A stretch of DNA of 64,000 nt. Origin: Candidatus Cloacimonadota bacterium (GTDB lineage Bacteria > Cloacimonadota > Cloacimonadia > G963667145). Below are positions 1,714 to 54,907 of this stretch, in pieces (position 1 is the stretch's first letter; every line of letters starts with the position of its first letter). The DNA is taken from contig OY762940.1 of the NCBI GenBank assembly GCA_963667255.1, forward strand, positions 256,001-320,000, read 5' to 3'. The translations under genes were made by a program, and so were the position numbers. Below the pieces are notes generated by a model, which saw only the letters and a program-made list of their open reading frames with translations, made no database searches and was not told the DNA's origin.

Positions 1714-2331
1714 TTACTCCCCTATCTCCATAACCTTTTTCCAGCCTGCGACGGAGTAGTGCATATACTCGCTTACAAATCTTTCAACTTCTTCGCTGGA
1801 CAAGTCGTGCATAACCAACTCAGCGACACTGCTGATGAACCATGAACTCATGGTGTGAATGAAAAATTTCGAAACATTTCCATTGATGGAAGGGTATTTT
1901 TGTTTTACCAATTCGATAAACTCTTTACCTGTTTTAGTGTGAACTTCGATACATTTTTCGCGATAATCTTCGAGTTTTGAGCCAGCGGATTTGAAAAAAA
2001 GCAAACGAAACTCCTCTTTGAACTCATCAACAAGCTGAATAAACATCTTAATTTGCTCTCGCACATACTTTTCCGTATCGTTGACATAGAGCTCGATGTC
2101 GTTATTATTGTTGTGCTTTTTTATCATATTGTCCAAAACAAGGAGCAGGTCAGCCACAATCTCACAAAAAATTTCGTCCTTATTACTAAAATAGTTGTAG
2201 ATATTGCTCAAGTTCACTTCGCTTTTTTTAGCAATAGTTCGCATCGAAGTATCTTTGAACCCTTTCGCAATAAACTCACTGCGAGCAACTTCCAAAATCT
2301 TCTTTCTGATACTATCTTTCTGAATTTGCAT
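1714..2331 (-). CDS. TetR/AcrR family transcriptional regulator
   Basis: N-terminal HTH: ILEVARSEFIAKGFKDTSMRTIAKKSEVNLSNIYNYFSNKDEIF; ATG 2331 follows a purine-rich RBS. Confidence 0.93.
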   Translation of the reverse strand: MQIQKDSIRKKILEVARSEFIAKGFKDTSMRTIAKKSEVNLSNIYNYFSNKDEIFCEIVADLLLVLDNMIKKHNNNNDIELYVNDTEKYVREQIKMFIQLVDEFKEEFRLLFFKSAGSKLEDYREKCIEVHTKTGKEFIELVKQKYPSINGNVSKFFIHTMSSWFISSVAELVMHDLSSEEVERFVSEYMHYSVAGWKKVMEIGE

Positions 2332-2478
2332 AACTCTTCCTCTCAACTACTTGCAATCCAATAAATATAAATTGCATTAATCGTCTATTTTTTTTTGAAT
2401 TTTGCAGGAGAGATTGAGGGAATCTTTTTGTTAAGAAAAAAGTTGGCTTATAATAGAGTATGAAGAAAACAAGGCTTA

Positions 2479-3516
2479 CTACGATTTTATGATATGCACA
2501 TTCTCAGCTTTGATGTGAGCGAAGATTTTGCCGTCCTTCTTCAATTGATGGTAATCGAGCACATTTTTGCTTATGTTCAGAGAGAGTCTGAAATTCTCTT
2601 TCCCCAACACCAAATCTACCGCCGTCCCTTTTGTCTCGATTTTCTCCAAAGTCAGCTCCAAAGCGTTTTCCATCTTCTCCTTTTTGCCAGAGAGGAAAAT
2701 ATTTTCCGGACGGATAGCGATGTTTAATTGGCTCTCCTCGAATTTTTCTTGAGAAAGGAGCTTAACTCCTTGGCAATCATAGGAATGCAACTCTTCCATT
2801 TTGCCACAATAGCTACCTTCCAAAAATATCGTATTGAGGAAATTTGCGATGAACGGTGTTTTCGGCTTGCAAAAAATGTTCTCGCTTGTGTCGAATTGCA
2901 AAAGATTCCCATCTTGCACGAAAGCAATTTTGTTCGCCAAACTCTTGGCATCCGCTATGTCGTGTGTGATGAGGATTACCGTGATGCCAAACTCAGCGGA
3001 AATATCGTGCAACACCCTCCGCATACATTTTTTGGTAAGGGTGTCCAAACTGCTAAAAGGCTCATCCAAGAGCAGTAGTTTCGGCTTGGCAGCAAGAGCT
3101 CTGGCGAAAGCGACTCTCTGCTTCTCTCCGCCCGACAGCCTTTTGGGATTTCGAGTGAGCAGATGAGAGATAGTCAGTTTCTCGGCAATTTTGAGGATGC
3201 TCTTTTCATCTTTGCTTTTCAGACCATAAGCGATATTTTGATGCACAGTCATATGTTGGAAAAGAGCGTAATTTTGAAAAACGACCCCGATGTTGCGGTC
3301 TTGTATTCGCTTCTTCGTTATCTCCGTGCCGTCCAAAAATACCGAGCCGTCATGCGGATTTCTAAACCCGATAATGAGGTCAAAAATTGTGCTTTTCCCT
3401 GCACCGGACGGTCCGATTATCGTCAAAAAATCTTTTCGCTCCAATTGGAAATTGACATTTCTTAAAGCAAAATTTTCGTATTTTATCGTCAGGTTTTCCA
3501 CAGAAAAGAAACTCAA
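2479..3516 (-). CDS. modC: Molybdate/tungstate ABC transporter ATP-binding subunit with C-terminal TOBE-like region
   Basis: GPSGAGKS, LSGGEKQR, LLLDEPF; in an operon with modAB. Confidence 0.8.
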   Translation of the reverse strand: MSFFSVENLTIKYENFALRNVNFQLERKDFLTIIGPSGAGKSTIFDLIIGFRNPHDGSVFLDGTEITKKRIQDRNIGVVFQNYALFQHMTVHQNIAYGLKSKDEKSILKIAEKLTISHLLTRNPKRLSGGEKQRVAFARALAAKPKLLLLDEPFSSLDTLTKKCMRRVLHDISAEFGITVILITHDIADAKSLANKIAFVQDGNLLQFDTSENIFCKPKTPFIANFLNTIFLEGSYCGKMEELHSYDCQGVKLLSQEKFEESQLNIAIRPENIFLSGKKEKMENALELTLEKIETKGTAVDLVLGKENFRLSLNISKNVLDYHQLKKDGKIFAHIKAENVHIIKS

Positions 3517-4292
3517 AACTTCACCTCGATTTTTTCGATTAAGTATATGGTAACAAAAGAGATAAGTATGAGCAAAACTCCGGCACTAATCGCCATGTCG
3601 ATGTTCCCGTAAGAAAGGTTCAGATAGAGAGTGATGGGCAGAGTTTCCGTTTTCATATAAGTTCCACCGGCAAGAATGAGAATAGCTCCGAAACTGCCGA
3701 TTGAGCGAGTGAACGCCAAGACTGTCGCTGCCAAAATTCCGTTTTTCGCCAATGGCAGCGAGATTTTAGTAAATGTGGTAAAATATCCGTGTCCCAAGCT
3801 GTAGGAAACCAACTCTTGATGCTCATCGATGTAGTCGAAAGTCGATTTGACGGTCTTCACGGAAAAAGGCAAAGCCGTGAAAAATTGTGCTGCGATTATT
3901 CCGAGTTTGGAGAAAATCACAGAGATGTGGAAAAAATTCAGAACGGCGACAACATTGTCCAATCCAAAAAACAGCAACAAGCACAGCCCCAGCAAAACCT
4001 GCGGAAACGCTATGGGCAAGTCTATTATTGCTTTGACGATTTTGCTCCCGAAGAACTCAAACCGCGATAAACTGTAGCCGATGGGAATTGCGAAAATCAT
4101 AACCAAAATCGTGGAGATTATTCCGGTCAAGAAGGACAATTTAATGGAAAAAAGGATTTGCGGGTCTGTAAAATTTTTCACCATAACAGTTGGATTTATC
4201 AAGAAAATGAACGAAAAAATCATCAAAACAAAAGTTATGGTGAAAAAGTAAGAAATTGTTAGAAATAAGATTTTGAGCGGATTTCTCATCAA
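3513..4292 (-). CDS. modB: Molybdate ABC transporter permease
   Basis: DLPIAFP, AQFFTALPF, FTRSIGSFGA, TETLP motifs of ModB/CysT permeases; 4-bp overlaps with both neighbours. Confidence 0.85.
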   Translation of the reverse strand: MMRNPLKILFLTISYFFTITFVLMIFSFIFLINPTVMVKNFTDPQILFSIKLSFLTGIISTILVMIFAIPIGYSLSRFEFFGSKIVKAIIDLPIAFPQVLLGLCLLLFFGLDNVVAVLNFFHISVIFSKLGIIAAQFFTALPFSVKTVKSTFDYIDEHQELVSYSLGHGYFTTFTKISLPLAKNGILAATVLAFTRSIGSFGAILILAGGTYMKTETLPITLYLNLSYGNIDMAISAGVLLILISFVTIYLIEKIEVKF

Positions 4293-5038
4293 TCAGCCAT
4301 TTTAAAATTCCACTTTTGCCAAATATCTTTTCTCTCTTTCAGATACTTATTAAACTTTTCTGCCAACTCTTTGTTCTCCGATTTTTTAGTAATAGCGGAC
4401 GGCACGGTCTTGATGACATTGTTATCAATCGTAATCGTCTTGATTTTGCCTTGACTCTCAGCCCAAGAAGCCATATCTTCCCAAATGATAGTAGCGTCAA
4501 CGGTTTTTTGGGTAATGTAAATAAGCAATTGATTTACTGATGCGGTCTCCACTGACACATTTCCCCTCACGGCATCGTAGATTTTGTTTTTTTGGAAAAT
4601 GGACTGAGAAATTTTACCGATTGCCGGACCCTTTTCCGCTCCAAGAGCAAGCTTAATTCCTTTCTTGGTAAAATCTTTAATTCCTTTAATTTTGGCGGGA
4701 TTGTCTGCTGGCACAGCTATCACAGGAATATGAAGCACGATTTTTTGAACACTCGACTCAACTATCCAACCTTTTTTTACCATATCGTTAAGAGTTTTTT
4801 CACTCCCCGGCACATACACATCACAAGGTTGTCCAGCTACATAGCGACCGTAGAGATTGCCCGAGCCGTCATAATAAACATCAATTTGCGTGTTGTTTTC
4901 CTTTTCAAAATTTTGGATAATTTCGTTCATCGGTTTGATGAGTCCTGCTCCCGAGAACACCGTCAGCTTGTCTTTCCCCCACAGAAATGACAGGGAAAGG
5001 ATGAAAAGCAAAAATATTTTTTTCATTTTTTTCTCCAT
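4289..5038 (-). CDS. modA: Molybdate ABC transporter substrate-binding protein
   Basis: Signal peptide; VFSGAGL, YDGSGNL, DVYVPGS, PAIGK motifs. Confidence 0.85.
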   Translation of the reverse strand: MEKKMKKIFLLFILSLSFLWGKDKLTVFSGAGLIKPMNEIIQNFEKENNTQIDVYYDGSGNLYGRYVAGQPCDVYVPGSEKTLNDMVKKGWIVESSVQKIVLHIPVIAVPADNPAKIKGIKDFTKKGIKLALGAEKGPAIGKISQSIFQKNKIYDAVRGNVSVETASVNQLLIYITQKTVDATIIWEDMASWAESQGKIKTITIDNNVIKTVPSAITKKSENKELAEKFNKYLKERKDIWQKWNFKMAD

Positions 5039-7854: not shown

Positions 7855-8520
7855 ATGGAACAAACAGATAGCGACCAAAAAAACGGCAAAATCGTTACCC
7901 CGAAACTCTATCAATATCTATCGGAGATATCGCCGGAAGAGCATCCATATTTGGCGAGACTTCGCAAAGAAACCGTAGAGAGAGTTCGTCAATCGCATTT
8001 TCTGATTAGCGTAGAGCAAGCCCAATTCTTGCAATTCCTCATCAAATTGATAAACGCCAAAAGCTGCTTGGACATCGGGACATTCACGGGTTACAGTGCT
8101 CTGCTTGCCGCTCTCTCCATTCCTGAAGATGGCAAGGTCGTCACTTTGGATTACAAAACTGATTTGGAAGCAATCCGCCAAAAGCACTGGGAAAACGCAA
8201 ACGCATCGCACAAAATCAGGCAGATAATCGGATTAGCCGAAGAGAGTCTGAAAAATCTCCAAGACCAAAAGTTCGACTTCATCTTCATCGATGCGGACAA
8301 AATCAACTACTCCAAGTATCTCGCACTCTGTCTGCCGATTTTGAACGACAACGGTCTTATCGTGGTGGACAATCTTTTGCTCTCGGGAAGAATATTGGAA
8401 GACGACAATCGCACTGCTCCCAAACTGCGACAATTCAACGCTTCTCTCAAGTCTATGGAGAACATCAACTACTCCATTTTGTCCATCGCCGACGGACTCG
8501 CACTCATTCAAAAAAGGTAG
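7855..8520 (+). CDS. SAM-dependent O-methyltransferase (CCoAOMT/MdmC family)
   Basis: LDIGTFTGYSAL, FDFIFIDADK, GLIVVDN, ADGL. Confidence 0.9.
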   Translation: MEQTDSDQKNGKIVTPKLYQYLSEISPEEHPYLARLRKETVERVRQSHFLISVEQAQFLQFLIKLINAKSCLDIGTFTGYSALLAALSIPEDGKVVTLDYKTDLEAIRQKHWENANASHKIRQIIGLAEESLKNLQDQKFDFIFIDADKINYSKYLALCLPILNDNGLIVVDNLLLSGRILEDDNRTAPKLRQFNASLKSMENINYSILSIADGLALIQKR

Positions 8521-46272: not shown

Positions 46273-47844
46273 ATGAGCAATTATCGCGAAATCCCAGTCT
46301 CCAACCACATTCGTTACGGCAAAATCTACTCCTACTCACTGCTGGGGATAGATGCTTACCCTATCCAAATCGAAAGCGACATCAGGATTGGAATTGTTAA
46401 ATTTTCCATCGTCGGCTTGCCCTCATCGTCCGTAAAAGAGAGCAAGGAACGGGTCGCCGCAGCTATCAGAAATTCGGGATTTGAGTTCAAACCCTTCATC
46501 TACACGGTCAACCTCGCTCCTGCGGATTTGCCCAAAGACGGTGTCGCCACAGACTTGCCCATCGCCCTGTCCATCCTGCGAGCGTCCAAGCAGTTTCACT
46601 ACTCCAAGGACAAGAAATTTGCTTTTGTCGGAGAGCTTTCTCTGAACGGGAAATTGCGACCGGTCAAAGGTATCTTGCCCATGGTGATGCAAGCCAAAGA
46701 GAACAAACTCGATGCTATCATTATCCCCAAAGACAACGCCCGCGAGGCTTCCATCGTAAAGGGGGTCAACATCATCGGTGTGGAATCTCTGCGTGAGTGC
46801 GTGCAGTTTCTCCAAAAGGAAATCGTCATCGAGCCGACACCATTCAGCTTGGACAATACAAACCGTGCAGACCCGTATTTGCCAGATATGTTCGATGTGA
46901 AAGGGCAATTGCAAGTGAAAAGAGCTTTGGAGATTGCGGCTGCCGGTGGACACAATGTCCTGATGATAGGACCTCCCGGCTCGGGGAAAACTATGCTTGC
47001 CAAAAGGCTCACTTCCATTTTACCCGATATGGCTCTAGAGGAGATTTTGCAAACAACCAAGATTTACTCTATCGCCGGCAAACTGGTGAACAAAAACCAA
47101 AACATCATCTACTCCCGACCGTTCCGCTCGCCTCACCACACCATAAGCGACATCGCCCTCATCGGCGGAGGCTCGTATCCCAAACCAGGGGAGGTCTCTT
47201 TGGCTCACAACGGAGTTCTCTTTTTGGACGAATTGCCAGAGTTCAAAAAGAATGTTCTGGAAGTTTTGCGACAACCGCTTGAGGACGGAGAGGTCAGCAT
47301 CGCTCGTGCCAACTGCTCTCTCAGCTTCCCTGCCGATTTTATGCTCGTCGCCTCGATGAACCCCTGTCCGTGCGGATACTACGGCAGTAACATTCCCGGG
47401 CACGAATGCTCTTGCTCTCCGCTAGCTATACAACGCTACCGCTCCCGCATCTCCGGACCGCTCTTGGATAGATTTGACATTCACATAGAGGTCGGTGCTC
47501 TCAAGTATGAAGAGCTGGCTGCTCTGCCCAACGGCGAGAGTTCCGAGAAAATCAGAGAGCGAGTGAACAATGTCCGCCAAATGCAACGAGACAAGCTGGA
47601 AGGGATTTTCTCTAACTCCCAAATGTCCCCCAAACACATCAAGAAATATTGCCAAATCGACAAAGAAAGCTCCAAAATCTTGCAAACCGCCATCGAGCAA
47701 ATGGGACTGTCTGCCAGAGCTTACGACAAAATCTTGAAAATCTCTAGAACCATCGCCGATATGGAGGGCAAAGAGAACATCGAAGCTCATCACATCTCCG
47801 AAGCAATCCAGTATCGGAGCTTGGACAGGAAATTTTGGGAGTAG
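46273..47844 (+). CDS. comM: YifB/ComM Mg-chelatase-like AAA+ ATPase
   Basis: NLAPAD, GELSLNG, GPPGSGKTM, RSPHH, PGEVSLAHNGVLFLDE, NPCPCG; uninterrupted. Confidence 0.95.
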   Translation: MSNYREIPVSNHIRYGKIYSYSLLGIDAYPIQIESDIRIGIVKFSIVGLPSSSVKESKERVAAAIRNSGFEFKPFIYTVNLAPADLPKDGVATDLPIALSILRASKQFHYSKDKKFAFVGELSLNGKLRPVKGILPMVMQAKENKLDAIIIPKDNAREASIVKGVNIIGVESLRECVQFLQKEIVIEPTPFSLDNTNRADPYLPDMFDVKGQLQVKRALEIAAAGGHNVLMIGPPGSGKTMLAKRLTSILPDMALEEILQTTKIYSIAGKLVNKNQNIIYSRPFRSPHHTISDIALIGGGSYPKPGEVSLAHNGVLFLDELPEFKKNVLEVLRQPLEDGEVSIARANCSLSFPADFMLVASMNPCPCGYYGSNIPGHECSCSPLAIQRYRSRISGPLLDRFDIHIEVGALKYEELAALPNGESSEKIRERVNNVRQMQRDKLEGIFSNSQMSPKHIKKYCQIDKESSKILQTAIEQMGLSARAYDKILKISRTIADMEGKENIEAHHISEAIQYRSLDRKFWE

Positions 47845-47868
47845 TGGACATAATGAAAATAATTGCAT

Positions 47869-47922
47869 TTAGAACACTCATTTGGGTAACTAAATTTAAT
47901 GTGGCTTAGATGGTAGTTAGCA
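47869..47922 (+). repeat. Decayed short attC-like site
   Basis: TTAGAAC...CATTTGGGT / GCTTAGATG-GTA-GTTAGCA; the arms pair only with several G-T wobbles. Confidence 0.35.
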
Positions 47923-47942
47923 CCTATTTAGAAAAACAGAAC

Positions 47943-48518
47943 ATGAAGCTACCTATATTAAAAATAGAAAATTCGGATTTAGTTGAATTCATTAGTTATT
48001 GGTCAAAGCTCTATGACTACCCATTAGAATCACTGTATAACGAAAGAATTTCAAAAAAAGAATTCGATAACGAAGACCTTCAACAATTATTTATATGGAA
48101 AAATGGAATGAAATTAAGTACTGGAAAGCAAAAGTCATTTGAGGAGAAAATTTTATCTAAACGAAAGGTTATAAATGACTTAAAAGCAAAAGAAAACATT
48201 GAGCTAAAAGAATTTCAAAACCATTTCAACAACCTTTCTGCTGTTTGGAAAATATTCCTTCTACATATAATCAGACCAAACAAATTTCCGATTTATGACC
48301 AACATATTAATCGAGCATTTAACTATATTCATGGACTTGCCTTTCATAATATCTCTGCGAATTCAATGACCAATAAAAGCAAAGAAGAATTTTATTTCAA
48401 TACATATTTAGGATTTATTGAATCATTGGATGGTATTGATTTAAAAGCATTAGATGAAGCTTTTTTTGCATTTGGACAATTTATAAATACAAAAACATAT
48501 ATTCAAATGATTAATTAA
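47943..48518 (+). CDS. Hypothetical protein, possible HhH-GPD/OGG-like DNA glycosylase fold
   Basis: AT-rich ORF with LFIWKNG, FLLHIIRPNKFPIYDQHINRA, LDEAFFAFG. Confidence 0.5.
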   Translation: MKLPILKIENSDLVEFISYWSKLYDYPLESLYNERISKKEFDNEDLQQLFIWKNGMKLSTGKQKSFEEKILSKRKVINDLKAKENIELKEFQNHFNNLSAVWKIFLLHIIRPNKFPIYDQHINRAFNYIHGLAFHNISANSMTNKSKEEFYFNTYLGFIESLDGIDLKALDEAFFAFGQFINTKTYIQMIN

Positions 48519-48592
48519 TAACAGCCCCTAACAATTTGTAAACACAATTAAAGTAATATAATAAAACAAACTCAACCCCACAGGAGACCTCA

Positions 48593-49222
48593 ATGACCAC
48601 ATATTTGTATGTATTAGACACACTCGCTGACTGGGAAATCGGCTACATCACCGCTGAGCTGAATAGTGGTAGATACCTCGACAAAACAAAACCGCCAGCA
48701 CAGATAATCAAAATCGGCAACACCACCGAGCCAATCAAAACGATGGGCGGAATGGCTATTACCCCTGATGCAAGTGTCAGCGAAATTGCTTTTGAAGACG
48801 GAGATTTGCTGATTTTGCCCGGAGCAGAGACTTGGGCAGACGAGAGCCACACCAAAATTCTGGATATGGTCCCCGATTTGCTGAGCAAAAATGTAATCGT
48901 CGCCGCTATCTGCGGTGCTACTATCGCTCTGGCGAACAAGGGGCTTTTGGACAATAGAGCCCACACAGGCAACGACAAAGAGGTCTTGAAGATGTTTTGC
49001 CCAAATTATGCAGGCGAGAAGTTTTACATCGACAAGCCTGCAGTGACAGATGGAAACTTGATAACAGCCTCAGGACTTGCTCCGCTTGAGTTTGCCTACG
49101 AAGTATTCAAAAAAACATCCGTGATGAGACCGAAAACTTTGGAAGCGTGGTATCAACTATACGCAACCAAAGAAGCCAAATATTTCTTCGTTCTGATGGA
49201 GTCGCTGGGAGATGGGAATTAG
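48593..49222 (+). CDS. DJ-1/PfpI family (class I glutamine amidotransferase-like) protein
   Basis: ADWE, LILPGA, AAICGA, DGNLITA; AGGAG RBS. Confidence 0.92.
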   Translation: MTTYLYVLDTLADWEIGYITAELNSGRYLDKTKPPAQIIKIGNTTEPIKTMGGMAITPDASVSEIAFEDGDLLILPGAETWADESHTKILDMVPDLLSKNVIVAAICGATIALANKGLLDNRAHTGNDKEVLKMFCPNYAGEKFYIDKPAVTDGNLITASGLAPLEFAYEVFKKTSVMRPKTLEAWYQLYATKEAKYFFVLMESLGDGN

Positions 49223-49579
49223 ATGAGCAACATCAAACAATACAATCAACTCGACTTTTACACCAAAGTAGCTAATTTGCTGAAAGAATCTCGTAAAAGC
49301 GTTGTTCAAACTATCAACAAAACAATGGTTTGCACCTATTTTGAGATAGGACGAATGATTGTAGTAGAAGAACAAAACGGGAAAGAGCGTGCCGAATACG
49401 GGAAACAACAGACAGTGTCTGCTAAATCTGAAAATGCAATTATTTCAAAGGACAATTTGCAATTAAGCTGGTCTCATTATTTGTTGCTGATGCGAATAAA
49501 TAACTCCAACGAAAGAAAATTTTATGAAATTGAAAGTATTAATAATAATTGGAGCTTAAGAGTTAAAACAATTGATTGA
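49223..49579 (+). pseudogene. YhcG/DUF1016 pseudogene (N-terminal part, internal deletion, frameshift)
   Basis: Matches 51021-52043 at EQNGKERAEYG, LSWSHY and NWS.R, but lacks the GKGFS..N...MR segment and loses frame after SLR. Confidence 0.8.
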
Positions 49580-49712
49580 AAACAAGATGAATGAATAACT
49601 TTTCAATTGCAATTATTATCGAATAGAGAAAATCGGTTGACGGCTTTGTCCAACTTATGAATATCAACAATCGGATAATTAAATAGCTTAGAAACGCAAA
49701 AGGAAACCCATA

Positions 49713-50060
49713 ATGAAACGGAAACTTTTTTTAATCATCACGCTTTCTTTGTTCACACTGCTTTTCGCACAACAAGCCGGTAGCACCATCGGCAACAAGC
49801 AAATCGGAGACATCAATTTATACAACTATCGCAAAGCAGCCATAGTCCAGTTCCCGTCAAAGATTTTGGAAGTCGGCTCGGAAAATTTAGTCTTAGACCC
49901 CAGCACCGTAAAGTTCATGGACAAATATCTTATCTTTGCGAGCAAAGCCAAACTCAGCGGTCAACTCTTTTACATCTTGACCGAAGAGAAAGCCTACTAC
50001 TATTATATCTCAACATCTTACAACGATAAATTTCCGGTTATACTGGAGATAGAAGATTAA
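49713..50060 (+). CDS. Hypothetical exported protein
   Basis: Signal peptide, AAGGA RBS, TTGACG at 49637-49642, host-like C-rich codons. Confidence 0.6.
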   Translation: MKRKLFLIITLSLFTLLFAQQAGSTIGNKQIGDINLYNYRKAAIVQFPSKILEVGSENLVLDPSTVKFMDKYLIFASKAKLSGQLFYILTEEKAYYYYISTSYNDKFPVILEIED

Positions 50061-50081
50061 ATTCGATATAAAGGAAAATAA

Positions 50082-50147
50082 ATGCAACTACGTTTAGACT
50101 GCCAATTTGGACAAATAAACACAATTAAGGTTATGCGGAAGTTGTGT
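50082..50147 (+). repeat. Decayed short attC-like site ending in the core site that starts the next cassette
   Basis: ATGCAAC...GGTTATG-CGGAA-GTTGTGT; GTTGTGTGTA (50141-50150) is the exact reverse complement of TACACACAAC (50790-50799). Confidence 0.5.
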
Positions 50148-50205
50148 GTAATGCAATAAAAACACAGAAAACACTAAATACATAGACAAGAAGAAATTAC
50201 CTTAT

Positions 50206-50772
50206 ATGGAATACCAAGAAACTGGAAGATTTGGAAGAATAACAAAAAATCTCAGAAAACAAGGATTTGAATTAGAGATGAAAGAAATTCTTTACGACTC
50301 AAAAGATTTTCCTAAATTAAACAAGAAACTCCAAACAAAATACATTGCAACTGTAATGGATAGAATGGAAAATTCAATAGGAAAGAAAAATACGAAAAAT
50401 GTTTTGTTTTCTTGTGGAGTGCAATGTTGTGGAAAATCTTGGTCTAATTTTGTTAACGACATTTGGAAAAAATCTGAATCAATAGAAGAATTTATTAAAA
50501 ACTTAAATAAAGCAGAAGAAAAATACAGTACTTGTTTTTCATTTGACCGAATAAATAATTCAATATCAGTTTATAGAAAGAAGTGCATATGTGGCTTAAT
50601 AAATAAAGGAAACCATTTTGATGGCAATGCAAATTATTGTAATTGTAGCATTGGTCATATGTCAAAATTTTTCAATTCGGTTCTTCCCATTGATAATATC
50701 ACATTGAAACAAACAATTTTTAATGGAAACGACAAGTGTGAATGGGAAATAAAGATAATAAAACAAGAATAA
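50206..50772 (+). CDS. Cys-rich hypothetical protein (DUF6144-like)
   Basis: CGVQCC, KCICGL, YCNCSIG, CEWEI. Confidence 0.6.
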   Translation: MEYQETGRFGRITKNLRKQGFELEMKEILYDSKDFPKLNKKLQTKYIATVMDRMENSIGKKNTKNVLFSCGVQCCGKSWSNFVNDIWKKSESIEEFIKNLNKAEEKYSTCFSFDRINNSISVYRKKCICGLINKGNHFDGNANYCNCSIGHMSKFFNSVLPIDNITLKQTIFNGNDKCEWEIKIIKQE

Positions 50773-50792
50773 AGAAACAATAAAGCACATAC

Positions 50793-50923
50793 ACACAACA
50801 ATGTGTCATACGTAATGGCGGCGAAAGTGCAAACATCAAGTTTTGACTCTCGCATCAACTTCATCTCGGTTTGAAAATGAGGTGCTCCGAAATCCGCCAC
50901 TACGCATACACTAACCGTTATCT
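50793..50923 (+). repeat. 131-bp attC-like site A
   Basis: ACACAAC...GTTATCT; outer stem GTGT[C]ATACGTAATGGCGG / CCGCCACTACGCATACAC with an extrahelical C. Confidence 0.75.
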
Positions 50924-51020
50924 GCAAGCGGAAAACCAGCGACACAATCAACACAAAAAAAGATTTATTAGGAGTCGAAAAAAATAAAGTAACTTTGAAG
51001 ACTAAAATTTCGGAGAGCAT

Positions 51021-52043
51021 ATGACTAAATCAAATGATATAAAAATTGTTGCAGATAATTATGACAGCTTAGTTTCCCAAATATCTGATACATATTTACA
51101 AGGGAAAGATAATGCCGTAAAAGCAGTAAATTTAGAAATTGTAAATACCTATTGGAAAGTAGGAGAACATATCATTGAATATGAACAAAACGGAAAAGAA
51201 CGTGCGGAATATGGAAGTAAATTATTAGAAAAACTTTCAAAAGATTTATCATTAATGCACGGTAAAGGATTTAGCGTTAGCAATATTCAAAGAATGAGAC
51301 AATTATACGATGAATATCCAATTTATGCGACACTGTCGCACAAATTGAGTTGGTCACATTATGTTGAACTTCTAAAAATTGATGATAAGTTAGAAAGAAG
51401 CTTTTATGAAAAGCAAAGCATTCTTGAAAATTGGTCTATTCGTGAATTAAAAAGACAAAAGAAAACATCATTATTCTTGCGACTTGCAGCATCTAAAGAT
51501 AAAAAAGGAATTTTAGAATTAGCAAAACAAGGACAATTTGTTGAAAAGCCTGAAGATATAATTAGAGAACCTTACGTTTTAGATTTCCTACAAATTCCAG
51601 AGCCATATAATTTCAGCGAATCTGAATTAGAATCACGAATTATTGATAGCCTACAACATTTTTTATTGGAATTAGGAAAAGGGTTTGCTTTTGTTGGAAG
51701 ACAATACAGAATTACACTTGGAAACAGACATTTTCGAGTTGACTTAGTTTTTTATCATCGTATTTTGAAATGTTTTGTTCTTATTGACCTAAAAAAAGAA
51801 GAGGCTGGATATGAAGATATTGGGCAAATGAATATGTATATGGGATATTTTGAAGCCGAAGAAAATTCAGAAGGAGATAATCCTCCGATAGGAATTGTCC
51901 TTTCAAAAAACAAAGATGAATTACTTGTGAAATACGCAATGAACAAGGTAAATTCTCAATTATTTGTTTCAAAATATCAACTTTATCTCCCGAATCGAGA
52001 TGAATTAAAAGCATTGATTGAAAAACAATTAAATGAAGATTAA
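51021..52043 (+). CDS. YhcG/DUF1016 family PD-(D/E)XK nuclease-domain protein
   Basis: LSWSHY, REPYVLDFL, FLLELGKGFAFVGRQ, VDLVFYH, IDLK, GQMNMY. Confidence 0.93.
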   Translation: MTKSNDIKIVADNYDSLVSQISDTYLQGKDNAVKAVNLEIVNTYWKVGEHIIEYEQNGKERAEYGSKLLEKLSKDLSLMHGKGFSVSNIQRMRQLYDEYPIYATLSHKLSWSHYVELLKIDDKLERSFYEKQSILENWSIRELKRQKKTSLFLRLAASKDKKGILELAKQGQFVEKPEDIIREPYVLDFLQIPEPYNFSESELESRIIDSLQHFLLELGKGFAFVGRQYRITLGNRHFRVDLVFYHRILKCFVLIDLKKEEAGYEDIGQMNMYMGYFEAEENSEGDNPPIGIVLSKNKDELLVKYAMNKVNSQLFVSKYQLYLPNRDELKALIEKQLNED

Positions 52044-52074
52044 AAATATTAATATAGTGAACGAAACCGCCAGC

Positions 52075-52205
52075 ATAGAACATTTTGTATAAGCGATAGC
52101 GGGTGAATGCTCAATTCGTAGGTTTGTAACCCGCCCGAGCATTTTCTCGGTTTGAAAAGTTTAACTCACGAGAACCGCTACGCCACATACCGCCAACCGT
52201 TAACA
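52075..52205 (+). repeat. 131-bp attC-like site B
   Basis: ATAGAAC...GTTAACA; stem GTATAAGCGATAGCGG / CCGCTACGCCACATAC; shares TCTCGGTTTGAAAA and AACCGTTA with site A. Confidence 0.7.
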
Positions 52206-52218
52206 AAACATTTTTTAG

Positions 52219-52842
52219 GTGAATAAGATGGAAAATTTATTTCTTGACCAAAAAAAAACACTTCACACTTGCAAGGAAGAAGATTGCAAAAATTGTAATG
52301 TATCAAAAGATATTAACTGTCATTTCAACTTAAAGCAGTTACTAAACTTTTTACTTATTGCTCTTCCCCCATTCATTATCGGTGGATATACCATTTATAC
52401 TCATAATTGGATATTTTTAGCAATTTGGATAGTAATTATTCTCTTATATTTCGGCTTAGTTGAAATTAGGGTAATGTGTTCTCACTGTCCGCATTATGCT
52501 GAGCCAAAACTAAAAACTCTCAAATGTTGGGCAAACTATGGTGCACCAAAATTGTGGAAATATAGACCGGGACCAATGAGCATAGCAGAAAAAACTATTT
52601 TTTTATTTGGAATGAGTGTTGCGTTTTTATACCCTATTATTTTCCTCGTCATAGTAAAAGAATGGTTTTTATTATTTATCTGCATAATGACCACTATCGC
52701 ATTTTTTGCCACTCTAAAAAATTTTTTGTGTGCACATTGTATAAATTTTGCATGCCCATTCAATACTGTTGATAATGATACAAGAAATAAATTCTTCGAT
52801 AAAAATGTGGTTGTAAAACAAGCATGGAAAAAAGAAGATTAA
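52219..52842 (+). CDS. Cys-rich hypothetical membrane protein (about 4 TM)
   Basis: C-x4-C-xx-C-x7-CH, CSHCPHY, CAHCINFACPFN; start is 52219 GTG or 52228 ATG. Confidence 0.7.
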   Translation: MNKMENLFLDQKKTLHTCKEEDCKNCNVSKDINCHFNLKQLLNFLLIALPPFIIGGYTIYTHNWIFLAIWIVIILLYFGLVEIRVMCSHCPHYAEPKLKTLKCWANYGAPKLWKYRPGPMSIAEKTIFLFGMSVAFLYPIIFLVIVKEWFLLFICIMTTIAFFATLKNFLCAHCINFACPFNTVDNDTRNKFFDKNVVVKQAWKKED

Positions 52843-53387
52843 TAATTGTAGGTGGAGCTAATGGTGTAGGCAAAACAACTTTTGCTTATCAATATCGAGA
52901 TGAATACAAAATTGATTATCTTGGAGCTGATGAAATTGCTTTGAGAATCAGCAAGACAGAAAAAAAAGATGTTGAATTAAAAGCAGGCAAAGAATTTTTC
53001 AAAACTCTTGATGAATATTACAATAAAAACAGATCAGTAATTATTGAATCAACTCTTTCTGGAATTGGATTATCAAAAAAACTTAAAAAATTTAAAGAAA
53101 ATGGTTTTACTATCCATCTACTGTATGTTTTTTTGGACGATATAAATTTATGTAAAAGTCGTGTTGCTGCAAGAGTCAAAAAAGGCGGACACGATGTCCC
53201 TTCTAAAGACATTGAAAGAAGATATTATCGCAGTTTTGCAAACTTAAAAAAAATATATCTTCCATTAGCAGATACTTGGCAAATTATATATAATGGATTG
53301 AAAAGACCTATTGAAATCGCTATTTCCGATAATAATTCAGAAATGATAGTTGATGAAGAATATTATAAAAAATTTTGGGAGCTTTAA
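52824..53387 (+). CDS. Zeta-toxin-like P-loop kinase/ATPase
   Basis: GGANGVGKTT, ESTLSG, RVAARVKKGGHDVP..DI.RRY. Confidence 0.85.
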   Translation: MEKRRLIIVGGANGVGKTTFAYQYRDEYKIDYLGADEIALRISKTEKKDVELKAGKEFFKTLDEYYNKNRSVIIESTLSGIGLSKKLKKFKENGFTIHLLYVFLDDINLCKSRVAARVKKGGHDVPSKDIERRYYRSFANLKKIYLPLADTWQIIYNGLKRPIEIAISDNNSEMIVDEEYYKKFWEL

Positions 53388-53389
53388 AA

Positions 53390-53548
53390 ATGAATAAAAG
53401 TGATTTAAAAAAGACAAAAAAGAAAATCAGTGCTAAAGCATTGCAACAATTCGCTGACAATAGACGGATTTTTAATAAAGCCGTAGAAAAAGCGATTGAA
53501 GAGAACAAGAAAGCAAAAATATTAACTGAAAATCTTTATGCTAAATAG
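53390..53548 (+). CDS. Small basic protein (52 aa), probable partner of the zeta-like protein
   Basis: Below the ORF-track cut-off; manual translation MNKSDLKKTKKKISAKALQQFADNRRIFNKAVEKAIEENKKAKILTENLYAK; starts 2 nt after the upstream stop. Confidence 0.55.
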   Translation: MNKSDLKKTKKKISAKALQQFADNRRIFNKAVEKAIEENKKAKILTENLYAK

Positions 53549-53575
53549 TCCTTTAGAGAAAACCAAACCACCCTA

Positions 53576-54907
53576 TCATCGTCTCCGCAATCCCTTCGGT
53601 AAATAGTTGTTTAGTCTGCCGTTAGCGACCTTGCCCCAGCCAACTCCATAACCATCAACCGTAACCAAGCACCAACCTTTGGGCAAATGGACACTCAAGC
53701 TCTCACCTGCCAAATAGTCCGCCAATCCCAAATCACTACTCTCAAAATTCAAGCTGTTTACCACATCATTCGCCGTGAGATGCAAAGCCAAAGCATGCGA
53801 AGGCTCAAATCTATTCTTGGCGACTCCGCCCAAATGAAGCCCGAAATTTAGCACCCGCAAATCGCTCAAATCAAGATTTTGCTCAAAATCGTTTAGATAC
53901 AAATTGTCGTTCAGCAGGCACAACCGACCCGATAAACTCTCTCTCAAAAATTCTCGCTGGAATCCCTCCCACAGCTCATTTTTCTTGATACTCTTGGGGA
54001 ACTCTCTTTTGGATTTGGAAACAAATTTAGACGATTCATTCTTTTGCAAAACAGCCACAAAATGCCCCTCTCCCTTGTGGATATGCGGATAAATTTGCAG
54101 GGAGCTGAACTTGCCAAAGCAATCAACATTCTCAATCTCACTCCTAACAAAATCGGGATGTTCTTGCAAAAATTCGTCAATCTGTTTCTCGTTCTCCTCT
54201 GGGGCGAAAGTGCAAGTGGAATACACCAACCGACCACCATCGGCAAGCATCTTCGCTGCTTCGTGCAAGATTTGCTTTTGCCTCTTCGCACAACCGAGAA
54301 CGCTCTCTAAACTCCACTGACTTGTTGCTTCGGGATTTTTGCGAAACAACCCCTCTCCAGAGCACGGAGCATCCACCAAAATCTTATCAAAAAACAACAG
54401 GAATTTCTTCCCTAACTCCTCAGCCTCGTTATTGGTAACTATCGCTCTTCTTGTGCCAAACCGTTGCAAGTTTTCCCGCAAAATCTTCGCTCTGGAAAAC
54501 ACAACTTCGTTGGCAATAAGCAGTCCGCTATCCCCCAATTTGCTCGTTATCTGCGTAGATTTCCCCCCGGGAGCAGCACACAAATCAAGCACTCTCTCAC
54601 CCACTTTGACATCCAAAGCCTCCACCGGCAACATAGCCGACGGCTCTTGCAGATAATACAAACCCGCTTGATGATACGGATGCAAACTCGGACGAAACCT
54701 CTCCTCAAAATAGAATCCCTCATTGCACCACTGTATCTGCTCCAGCTCAAATTCATCTTTCAGAAACGGCAATCTATCCTTTATCTTCAGAGAGTTAACC
54801 CGCAACCCTTTGGTATGCTTACAATTATAACTATTCGAAAATTCCGAAAACTCCTCATCTCCGAGCTGCTTCTTCATCCTCTCCAAAAACAATTCAGGTA
54901 ATTTCAA
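53576..54907 (-). CDS. RsmF/NOL1/NOP2/Sun family rRNA m5C methyltransferase
   Basis: YYLQEPSAM, LDLCAAPGGKS, DAPCSGEG, YSTCT; C-terminal RFEPSHALA and N.LPKGLR. Confidence 0.92.
   Translation of the reverse strand: MKLPELFLERMKKQLGDEEFSEFSNSYNCKHTKGLRVNSLKIKDRLPFLKDEFELEQIQWCNEGFYFEERFRPSLHPYHQAGLYYLQEPSAMLPVEALDVKVGERVLDLCAAPGGKSTQITSKLGDSGLLIANEVVFSRAKILRENLQRFGTRRAIVTNNEAEELGKKFLLFFDKILVDAPCSGEGLFRKNPEATSQWSLESVLGCAKRQKQILHEAAKMLADGGRLVYSTCTFAPEENEKQIDEFLQEHPDFVRSEIENVDCFGKFSSLQIYPHIHKGEGHFVAVLQKNESSKFVSKSKREFPKSIKKNELWEGFQREFLRESLSGRLCLLNDNLYLNDFEQNLDLSDLRVLNFGLHLGGVAKNRFEPSHALALHLTANDVVNSLNFESSDLGLADYLAGESLSVHLPKGWCLVTVDGYGVGWGKVANGRLNNYLPKGLRRR

Follow-up and report, generated by a model that had tools for sequence, protein, structure and literature searches.

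Two intergenic elements in a 64,000-nucleotide stretch of a Candidatus Cloacimonadota genome (contig OY762940.1; hereafter, the window) raise the question of whether genes can be gathered as integron-type cassettes in a genome without an integron integrase. The host genome (G000) is a single contig of 1.59 Mb that is 98.9% complete, and the elements, sites A and B, lie in an interval whose gene content differs in all five congeners examined (Table 1). A sequence-only reading had proposed that they close true cassettes inserted at G|TT, that they may belong to a poorly described integron-like system, and that no integrase is found near them. The last point holds for the entire genome: a PF00589 search returned two genes, both XerC/D-like and both distant from the window, neither IntI nor the recombinase clade described below was found in the host genome, and tblastn detected no recombinase remnant there.

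Table 1. Features of the locus, in window coordinates.
Feature	Coordinates	Strand	Description
comM/YifB-family gene	46273-47844	+	left flank of the variable interval
variable interval	47845-53575		comM/YifB-family gene to RsmF-family gene
attI-like docking element (likely)	50064-50143	+	ends in crossover triplet G50141|TT; 7 dispersed genome copies
25-codon reading frame	50082-50159	+	extends from within the docking site to cassette 1; uninterrupted in 4 of 7 copies
cassette 1	50142-50917	+	one gene plus site A; 97% identical in G207, both ends G|TT
cassette 1 gene	50206-50772	+	188 aa, DUF6144-like
site A	50793-50923	+	131-bp attC-type site; one extrahelical base (top C, bottom G); putative crossover G50917|TT
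cassette 2	50918-52199	+	one gene plus site B; boundaries deduced from offset complementarity
cassette 2 gene	51021-52043	+	340 aa, YhcG-family PD-(D/E)XK nuclease
site B	52075-52205	+	131-bp attC-type site; no extrahelical base; outer stem partly mismatched
RsmF-family gene	53576-54907	-	right flank of the variable interval

Both elements run from AAC to GTT exactly where the reading had placed them, and the two motifs that they share also lie where reported (TCTCGGTTTGAAAA only at 50864 and 52145, AACCGTTA at 50913 and 52195); overall, A and B agree at 74 of 130 positions. The AAC and GTT cores surround an imperfect palindrome downstream of a gene, the arrangement expected of attC. Searching the host genome with A and B alone initially returned these two copies only, and broader family models added two further, weaker sites. 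Since both were recovered in a whole-genome search with a profile of 81 sites taken from other genomes (E values of 1.3e-22 for A and 3.5e-12 for B), the two sites are not chance sequences. The folding claims fared less evenly. The extrahelical C of site A is genuine, and single sites fold better than shuffled sequences, but modestly so (z -1.5 to -2.75). The branched interior described for both sites was found in B (z -2.7 for the top strand and -2.9 for the bottom strand, with both named hairpins in the predicted fold) but not in A (z +0.4 and +0.05, with one of the two named hairpins in the interior fold). The extra length of the right spacer depends on the placement of the L box, with site A lying within one base of canonical geometry; by our own count, it is one base off the aadB attC site, on the left. 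Rfam gave no match in 47500-54000 at E values up to 1, a blank that is uninformative on attC detection since Rfam also missed the canonical attC sites in the plasmid locus L160. Identity with the Flavo-1 RNA (RF01705) was rejected, given this result and the lack of any match to it at gathering score in nine family loci, where Rfam returned nothing besides one RNA-OUT.

Sites A and B are genuine cassette-end (attC-type) sites of a large family whose members occur mainly in Bacteroidota and related phyla. A search of genome contigs with the pattern of the right arm returned 120 stretches, with ~930 estimated in the whole collection, and the record titles of the 120, by reading and without a count, mostly name Bacteroidota or related groups. 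The family profile, in part derived from these same stretches, matches 116 of the 120, and site lengths cluster at 126-135 bp. The loci with flanks number 80 and hold 190 sites; in all 42 loci with multiple sites, every site lies on one strand, and the reversed sequence yields none. The exact pattern has no match in five congeners of the host, and a covariance model found family sites in all four congeners searched with it (G208 was left out). The family model matched none of the canonical attC sites in the plasmids L160 and L004. In viral contigs, the sole match to the shared 14-mer pattern aligns poorly and was set aside as probable chance. Many defence genes are among the cargo of family arrays. 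Typical anti-phage components, namely a Sir2-like and HerA pair and a SMODS nucleotidyltransferase, are among the cassette cargo in L153 (G207, 2297-4944) and L277 (G169, 1065-2830). On the Persicobacter psychrovividus plasmid pPP2 (L005), at least nine family sites occur within 16 kb between hypothetical genes, and one of them, 84% identical to site A, is followed by a cassette start identical to that at 50141.

One member of this family is already known as an attC site, that of blaVEB-1, a connection that the sequence-only reading had missed. With site B as query, 40 plasmid records were matched, mostly of clinical genera, with 72% identity in the 30 listed; in the three records that were opened the match sits between blaVEB and aadB, and site B is 72% identical to the blaVEB-1 attC over 114 nt. 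The veb1 attC is 133 bp long and has a single extrahelical G; IntI1 recombines it with an efficiency ~50 times below that for the aadB attC (PMC3518468). It resembles the family in its long terminal part and in L boxes that are off consensus, and its extra base is placed as in site A; the passages of that paper on veb1 treat it as a single odd, inefficient class 1 attC and make no link to a family or to another recombinase. A blaVEB cassette also occurs in a Melioribacteraceae MAG behind an attI-like site (L322, G232:C98, 557-1630). It is 99.6% identical to the clinical cassette over 1,083 nt in a genome that has nine family sites, and this locus points to an origin for the blaVEB cassette. 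A search of that genome, whose completeness is not stated, for the recombinase clade gave two weaker matches only. A 231-aa gene with a penicillin-binding/transpeptidase fold follows the blaVEB cassette in this locus.

We analyzed site structure in a set of 63 sequences that comprised 60 sites dereplicated at 85%, A, B, and veb1. The outer stem is paired in 92.7% of cells, compared with 28-48% in slid controls, and compensatory changes occur in 16 of its 19 pairs, a level reached in none of 500 shuffles; the search pattern fixed some right-arm stem columns and so biased the pairing counts upward, with the strongest covariation falling at free columns. The stem covariation that the reading had asked for is thus strong in the outer stem, and stem positions vary freely among the cassettes of one array while their pairing is kept. 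Two A.C mismatches, which are G.T on the bottom strand, are kept in 61 and 53 of the 63 sites, and the bottom strand folds more stably in 55. The extrahelical C is present in five sites (A, veb1, and three others), absent from 57, B included, and unclear in one. The interior measures 71-75 nt in all but one of the 63 sites, has no consensus fold across them, and folds better than z -2 in six, which include B but not A. The branched interior is therefore not a defining feature of these sites.

Cassette 1 is mobile. The window from 50141 to 50919 is 97% identical to a segment of the congener G207 that starts and ends at GTT triplets and is preceded by another family site and followed by a different cassette, while the adjoining comM genes of the two genomes are only 75% identical. 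In addition, runs X3 and X4, which come from two other studies, contain cassette 1 from exactly 50141 with the G207-type neighbour. Its gene matches PF19641 with an E value of 1.7e-6 and 28.6 bits, against a cut-off of 28.8, and Atlas matches it to DUF6144 at 0.93. The cassette 2 gene matches PF06250 (E 1e-57), PF17761, and PADLOC PDC-S02 (E 7e-135) and is a candidate anti-phage gene. A search of 232 genomes of the phylum did not recover cassette 2 as a unit. No joints of circular forms (50917-50142 and 52199-50918) were present in the contigs of the source runs X1 and X2, a type of data that drops rare forms.

If exchange takes place between G and TT, the left end of a cassette's terminal site should be complementary to the first bases of that cassette. 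The complementarity of the left end at 50790 to 50141 (10/10) and of that at 52067 to 50917 (11/15) was reproduced as the reading had given it. Beyond the triplet, the left end of site A matches the start of its own cassette at 7 of 7 positions and its own right end at 4 of 7, and for site B the corresponding values are 4 of 7 and 0 of 7. Among 22 consecutive site pairs, the fit of the left end to the previous start exceeds that to its own end in 19 cases, falls short of it in two, and equals it in one; the mean number of matches out of seven is 4.9 for the previous start, 2.5 for the own end, and 2.2 for random sequence, with the caveats that the pairs are not independent and that the left-end register slipped at several AACAAC sites, which lowered the matches. 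Taken together, the exact ends of the G207 copy, the X3 and X4 runs, and the offset complementarity bear out the proposal of true cassettes inserted at G|TT.

A tyrosine recombinase that co-occurs with the element, which the reading had named as a check, was found in G207. There, the equivalent of the variable interval carries a co-oriented 282-aa recombinase (C1:942149-942967) directly after comM, a GTT site 69 nt past the recombinase stop, and three family sites downstream in an array that includes cassette 1. Tyrosine-recombinase matches occur in 10 of the 80 family loci: seven are array-heading recombinases of one clade, six of them co-oriented, one is XerD, and two were left out. When the seven were compared with the integron-integrase model TIGR02249, matches were obtained in two stretches, below the cut-off. 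In alignments with IntI1, ~40 residues of the IntI-specific insertion are missing from six of six recombinases, and the G207 enzyme has an equally short segment at the insertion position. Clade recombinases contain PF13495 and PF00589 and are closer to IntI than to XerC/D; in a quick tree, the clade and IntI1 split from three XerC/D rows with an SH-aLRT value of 100, with IntI1 on a long branch. The closest structures to an AlphaFold model (pLDDT 88.9) are the Vibrio integron integrase 2a3v and the archaeal XerA, which tie. Many clade members, the G207 enzyme not among them, have an extra N-terminal domain of ~90 aa, for which we obtained one HARP match below the cut-off (E 0.029) and a best Z of 7.0.

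Within the phylum, the clade is present in 39 of 232 genomes and in one of five congeners (G207). Decayed clade recombinases head other arrays in G207 and G206. In searches from the recombinase side, 28 loci had 1.3 kb or more of downstream sequence (mostly 1.5 kb), and only three of them showed a family site. Ten extended recombinase loci in the phylum include one with full sites and one with a partial site, and three of the four extended loci scanned for repeats have other repeat families instead. Arrays with different repeat families are headed by clade recombinases in L272 (G220), L276 (G182), and L278 (G225), and the repeats of L272 and L276, like several heads of the same subgroup, end in ACATT. 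Tandem pairs of clade recombinase genes occur in 13 genomes of one family (G134, G135, G142, G147, G150, G151, G154, G163, G179, G182, G186, G188, and G193).

The reading had also missed what lies upstream of the first cassette. The 78 bp before 50141 are one of seven dispersed attI-like elements in the host genome, and based on its position and its homology to integrase-adjacent heads, the GTT at 50141 likely ends such an element. It is an imperfect inverted repeat around CCAATTTGG; blastn located it at four other places in the genome (E 8e-15 to 3e-7), a two-sequence profile added two more, and the mean column identity of the seven aligned copies is 78%. A model of the seven copies matches the DNA right after the recombinase in three of 54 heads at E <1e-4 (G183, G169, and Algoriphagus). 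Across these 54 recombinase loci, an automatic anchor, doubtful in some cases, puts a GTT or ATT a median of 95 nt past the stop, with cassette-start sequence next. On the matrix from these heads, the 33-base stretch up to 50143 scores 10.5, compared with a leave-one-out median of 11.0; this exceeds 47% of the heads, but among the 53,490 GTT sites of the genome 160 score as high, and the six homologs elsewhere in the genome are the stronger evidence. By itself, the docking element of the window matched none of the 54 heads in blastn. It also has no match in G207's own head, so the window platform is not simply that of G207 minus the gene. The 25-codon frame that crosses the docking site could possibly encode a leader peptide.

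Family sites within 6 kb downstream of the seven copies are clear in two cases, weak in one, and absent in four. The six other copies end at G000:C1 250034+, 347431+, 485399-, 592905-, 685507-, and 1228190- and have no integrase; TTGAC-type hexamers, identified by eye, precede them, and lower-GC co-oriented genes follow. Three of the six head DNA methyltransferase modules. A family site with a decayed right end, at G000:C1:253835-253965, forms the end of a methyltransferase module 2 kb ahead of the window, and another family site lies at G000:C1:667073-667199. Six exact copies of one 16-17 nt piece of the docking element fall inside another repeat that reads like a transposase gene and were treated as chance. 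The attI-like element also occurs inside arrays, between cassettes, in L284 (G128:C18, 14671-14596 and 12747-12672), L313 (G204, 8209-8285), and L076 (3358-3285); in G128, the mid-array element belongs to a duplicated block of ~400 bp. The remnants in G207 and G206 support the repeated arrival of whole platforms that then decayed, by which the seven docking sites may have spread. Since the recombinase gene lies just before a co-oriented docking site, the two could move together like a cassette, and their orientation and the mid-array copies suggest that this unit may have done so.

We consider it likely that the two cassettes were inserted successively at the docking site by an insertion-less, IntI-related recombinase that has since been lost from the genome. 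Each site would fold as a single-stranded hairpin, probably from the bottom strand, with an outer stem of ~19 pairs presenting AAC/GTT. Circular cassettes would enter the docking site by exchange between G and TT, the newest coming first as in integrons. The 71-75 nt interior would serve as a fixed-length spacer rather than as a conserved branched fold. Because 57 of the 63 sites lack an extrahelical base, recognition would rely on the asymmetric spacer and the two conserved mismatches. The recombinase gene would originally lie upstream, co-oriented and ~70-130 nt before the crossover point; once it decays, the docking site and cassettes would remain and the array would freeze. In IntI, the insertion binds the extrahelical bases; an enzyme lacking the former fits sites lacking the latter.

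Alternatively, the locus could be an ordinary CALIN of classical long-attC cassettes, in which a canonical IntI acted in trans at a secondary G|TT (attG) or was later lost, and the insertion-less recombinases are bystanders. By the family model, which was built in this analysis, the locus does hold at least two attC-type sites with no integrase nearby. Two-site CALINs are common, insertion at secondary GWT positions has been shown (10.1101/2022.09.11.507474), and IntI1 recombines the veb1 attC, a family member (PMC3518468). Site A, moreover, has its extrahelical base, and its left spacing falls one base short of the canonical value. We nevertheless regard this explanation as unlikely, given that all seven array-heading recombinases fall below the TIGR02249 cut-off and that those aligned with IntI1 lack the insertion, that so few sites have an extrahelical base, that the upstream site is a repeated 78-bp element rather than a bare GWT, and that the family model passes over the canonical attC sites of L160 and L004.

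A somewhat less probable possibility is that the clade recombinase acts like Xer on double-stranded sites or extruded cruciforms, such that the palindrome provides two binding arms and not a folded strand. Compensatory changes alone do not distinguish a hairpin from two binding sites in inverted orientation, the fold search places XerA level with the integron integrase, and the insertion that the clade lacks has been termed essential for integron function in passages of PMC8138268. Working against Xer-like action are the stem positions that vary freely within one array yet stay paired, the strict orientation of the sites, and the conserved A.C mismatches, which favour one strand. It is very improbable that MITEs, terminators, or chance hairpins account for the elements and that the genes arrived by homologous exchange of the variable interval: the interval is variable in all five congeners and single-site folding is modest, but the exact G|TT at both ends of cassette 1 and the offset complementarity already contradict this explanation, and the one-strand arrays and the presence of a published attC within the family also speak against it.

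The locus appears to work like an integron cassette array and passes the tests for cassettes that concern cores, mobility, and offset complementarity. It does not fall within the classical integron family, since the enzyme linked to these sites lacks the IntI insertion and its gene is missing from this genome. Relative to CALIN and SALIN, which are attC clusters and single sites without an integrase (10.1101/2022.09.11.507474, PMC9024848), it is similar in having two sites in an integrase-free genome but differs in that its array is headed by a seven-copy attI-like element and its sites belong to a separate family. Sedentary chromosomal integrons, especially the Treponema type in which intI is co-oriented with the array, have the same layout of recombinase, docking site, and array, the same AAC/GTT cores, co-oriented cassettes, long conserved sites, and loss of the integrase leaving the array (PMC3607928). 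Unlike them, the family has a linked recombinase without the IntI insertion, in many cases with the ~90 aa N-terminal domain, and most of its sites have no extrahelical base. A subgroup of integron-like tyrosine recombinases (Smyshlyaev et al. 2021, PMC8138268; NCBIfam NF040815) includes members without the full insertion, to which the pertinent passages of that study assign no cassette arrays. We found no description of the present system in a literature search that took in few subscription papers, in keeping with the suggestion that it is poorly described.

More tentatively, at a little below an even chance in our estimation, the family may constitute a second integron class that extends across Bacteroidota and related phyla, with an insertion-less recombinase and hairpins mostly without extrahelical bases, in which the gene-plus-site unit moves like a cassette and seeds docking sites (seven here) and from whose pool the clinical blaVEB cassette would derive. 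Integron recombination is considered to be made possible by the IntI insertion and by the extrahelical bases of attC (PMC8138268, PMC5027507), and a cassette system without either would revise that view and offer a natural comparison for the evolution of hairpin recombination from Xer-like enzymes. It could also explain why complete integrons are nearly absent from Bacteroidetes in IntegronFinder surveys (PMC9024848) despite integron-integrase-like genes being common in Bacteroidota (PMC13597742, citing PMC8138268). The locus lends itself well to testing, as an intact recombinase, a docking site, and the same cassette are available from a close relative.

Several further observations concern the rest of the interval. 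A third cassette 3' of site B was considered and rejected: a start at 52199 scores like 34% of the GTTs in the genome, no terminal site follows downstream, and the G206 homolog also has no site. A candidate empty site in G204 was likewise discarded, as the 115-aa gene has a homolog there yet the DNA past its stop is unrelated, leaving no clean empty site. A promoter and terminator scan was at chance level, with 22 promoter-like sites compared with 24 in shuffles. At 52824-53548, an AAA_33/zeta-toxin-like gene is followed by a 52-aa frame, possibly as a two-gene toxin-antitoxin-like pair. Finally, a truncated 118-aa DUF1016/YhcG-like gene lies at 49223-49579, 1.8 kb upstream of the intact cassette copy.
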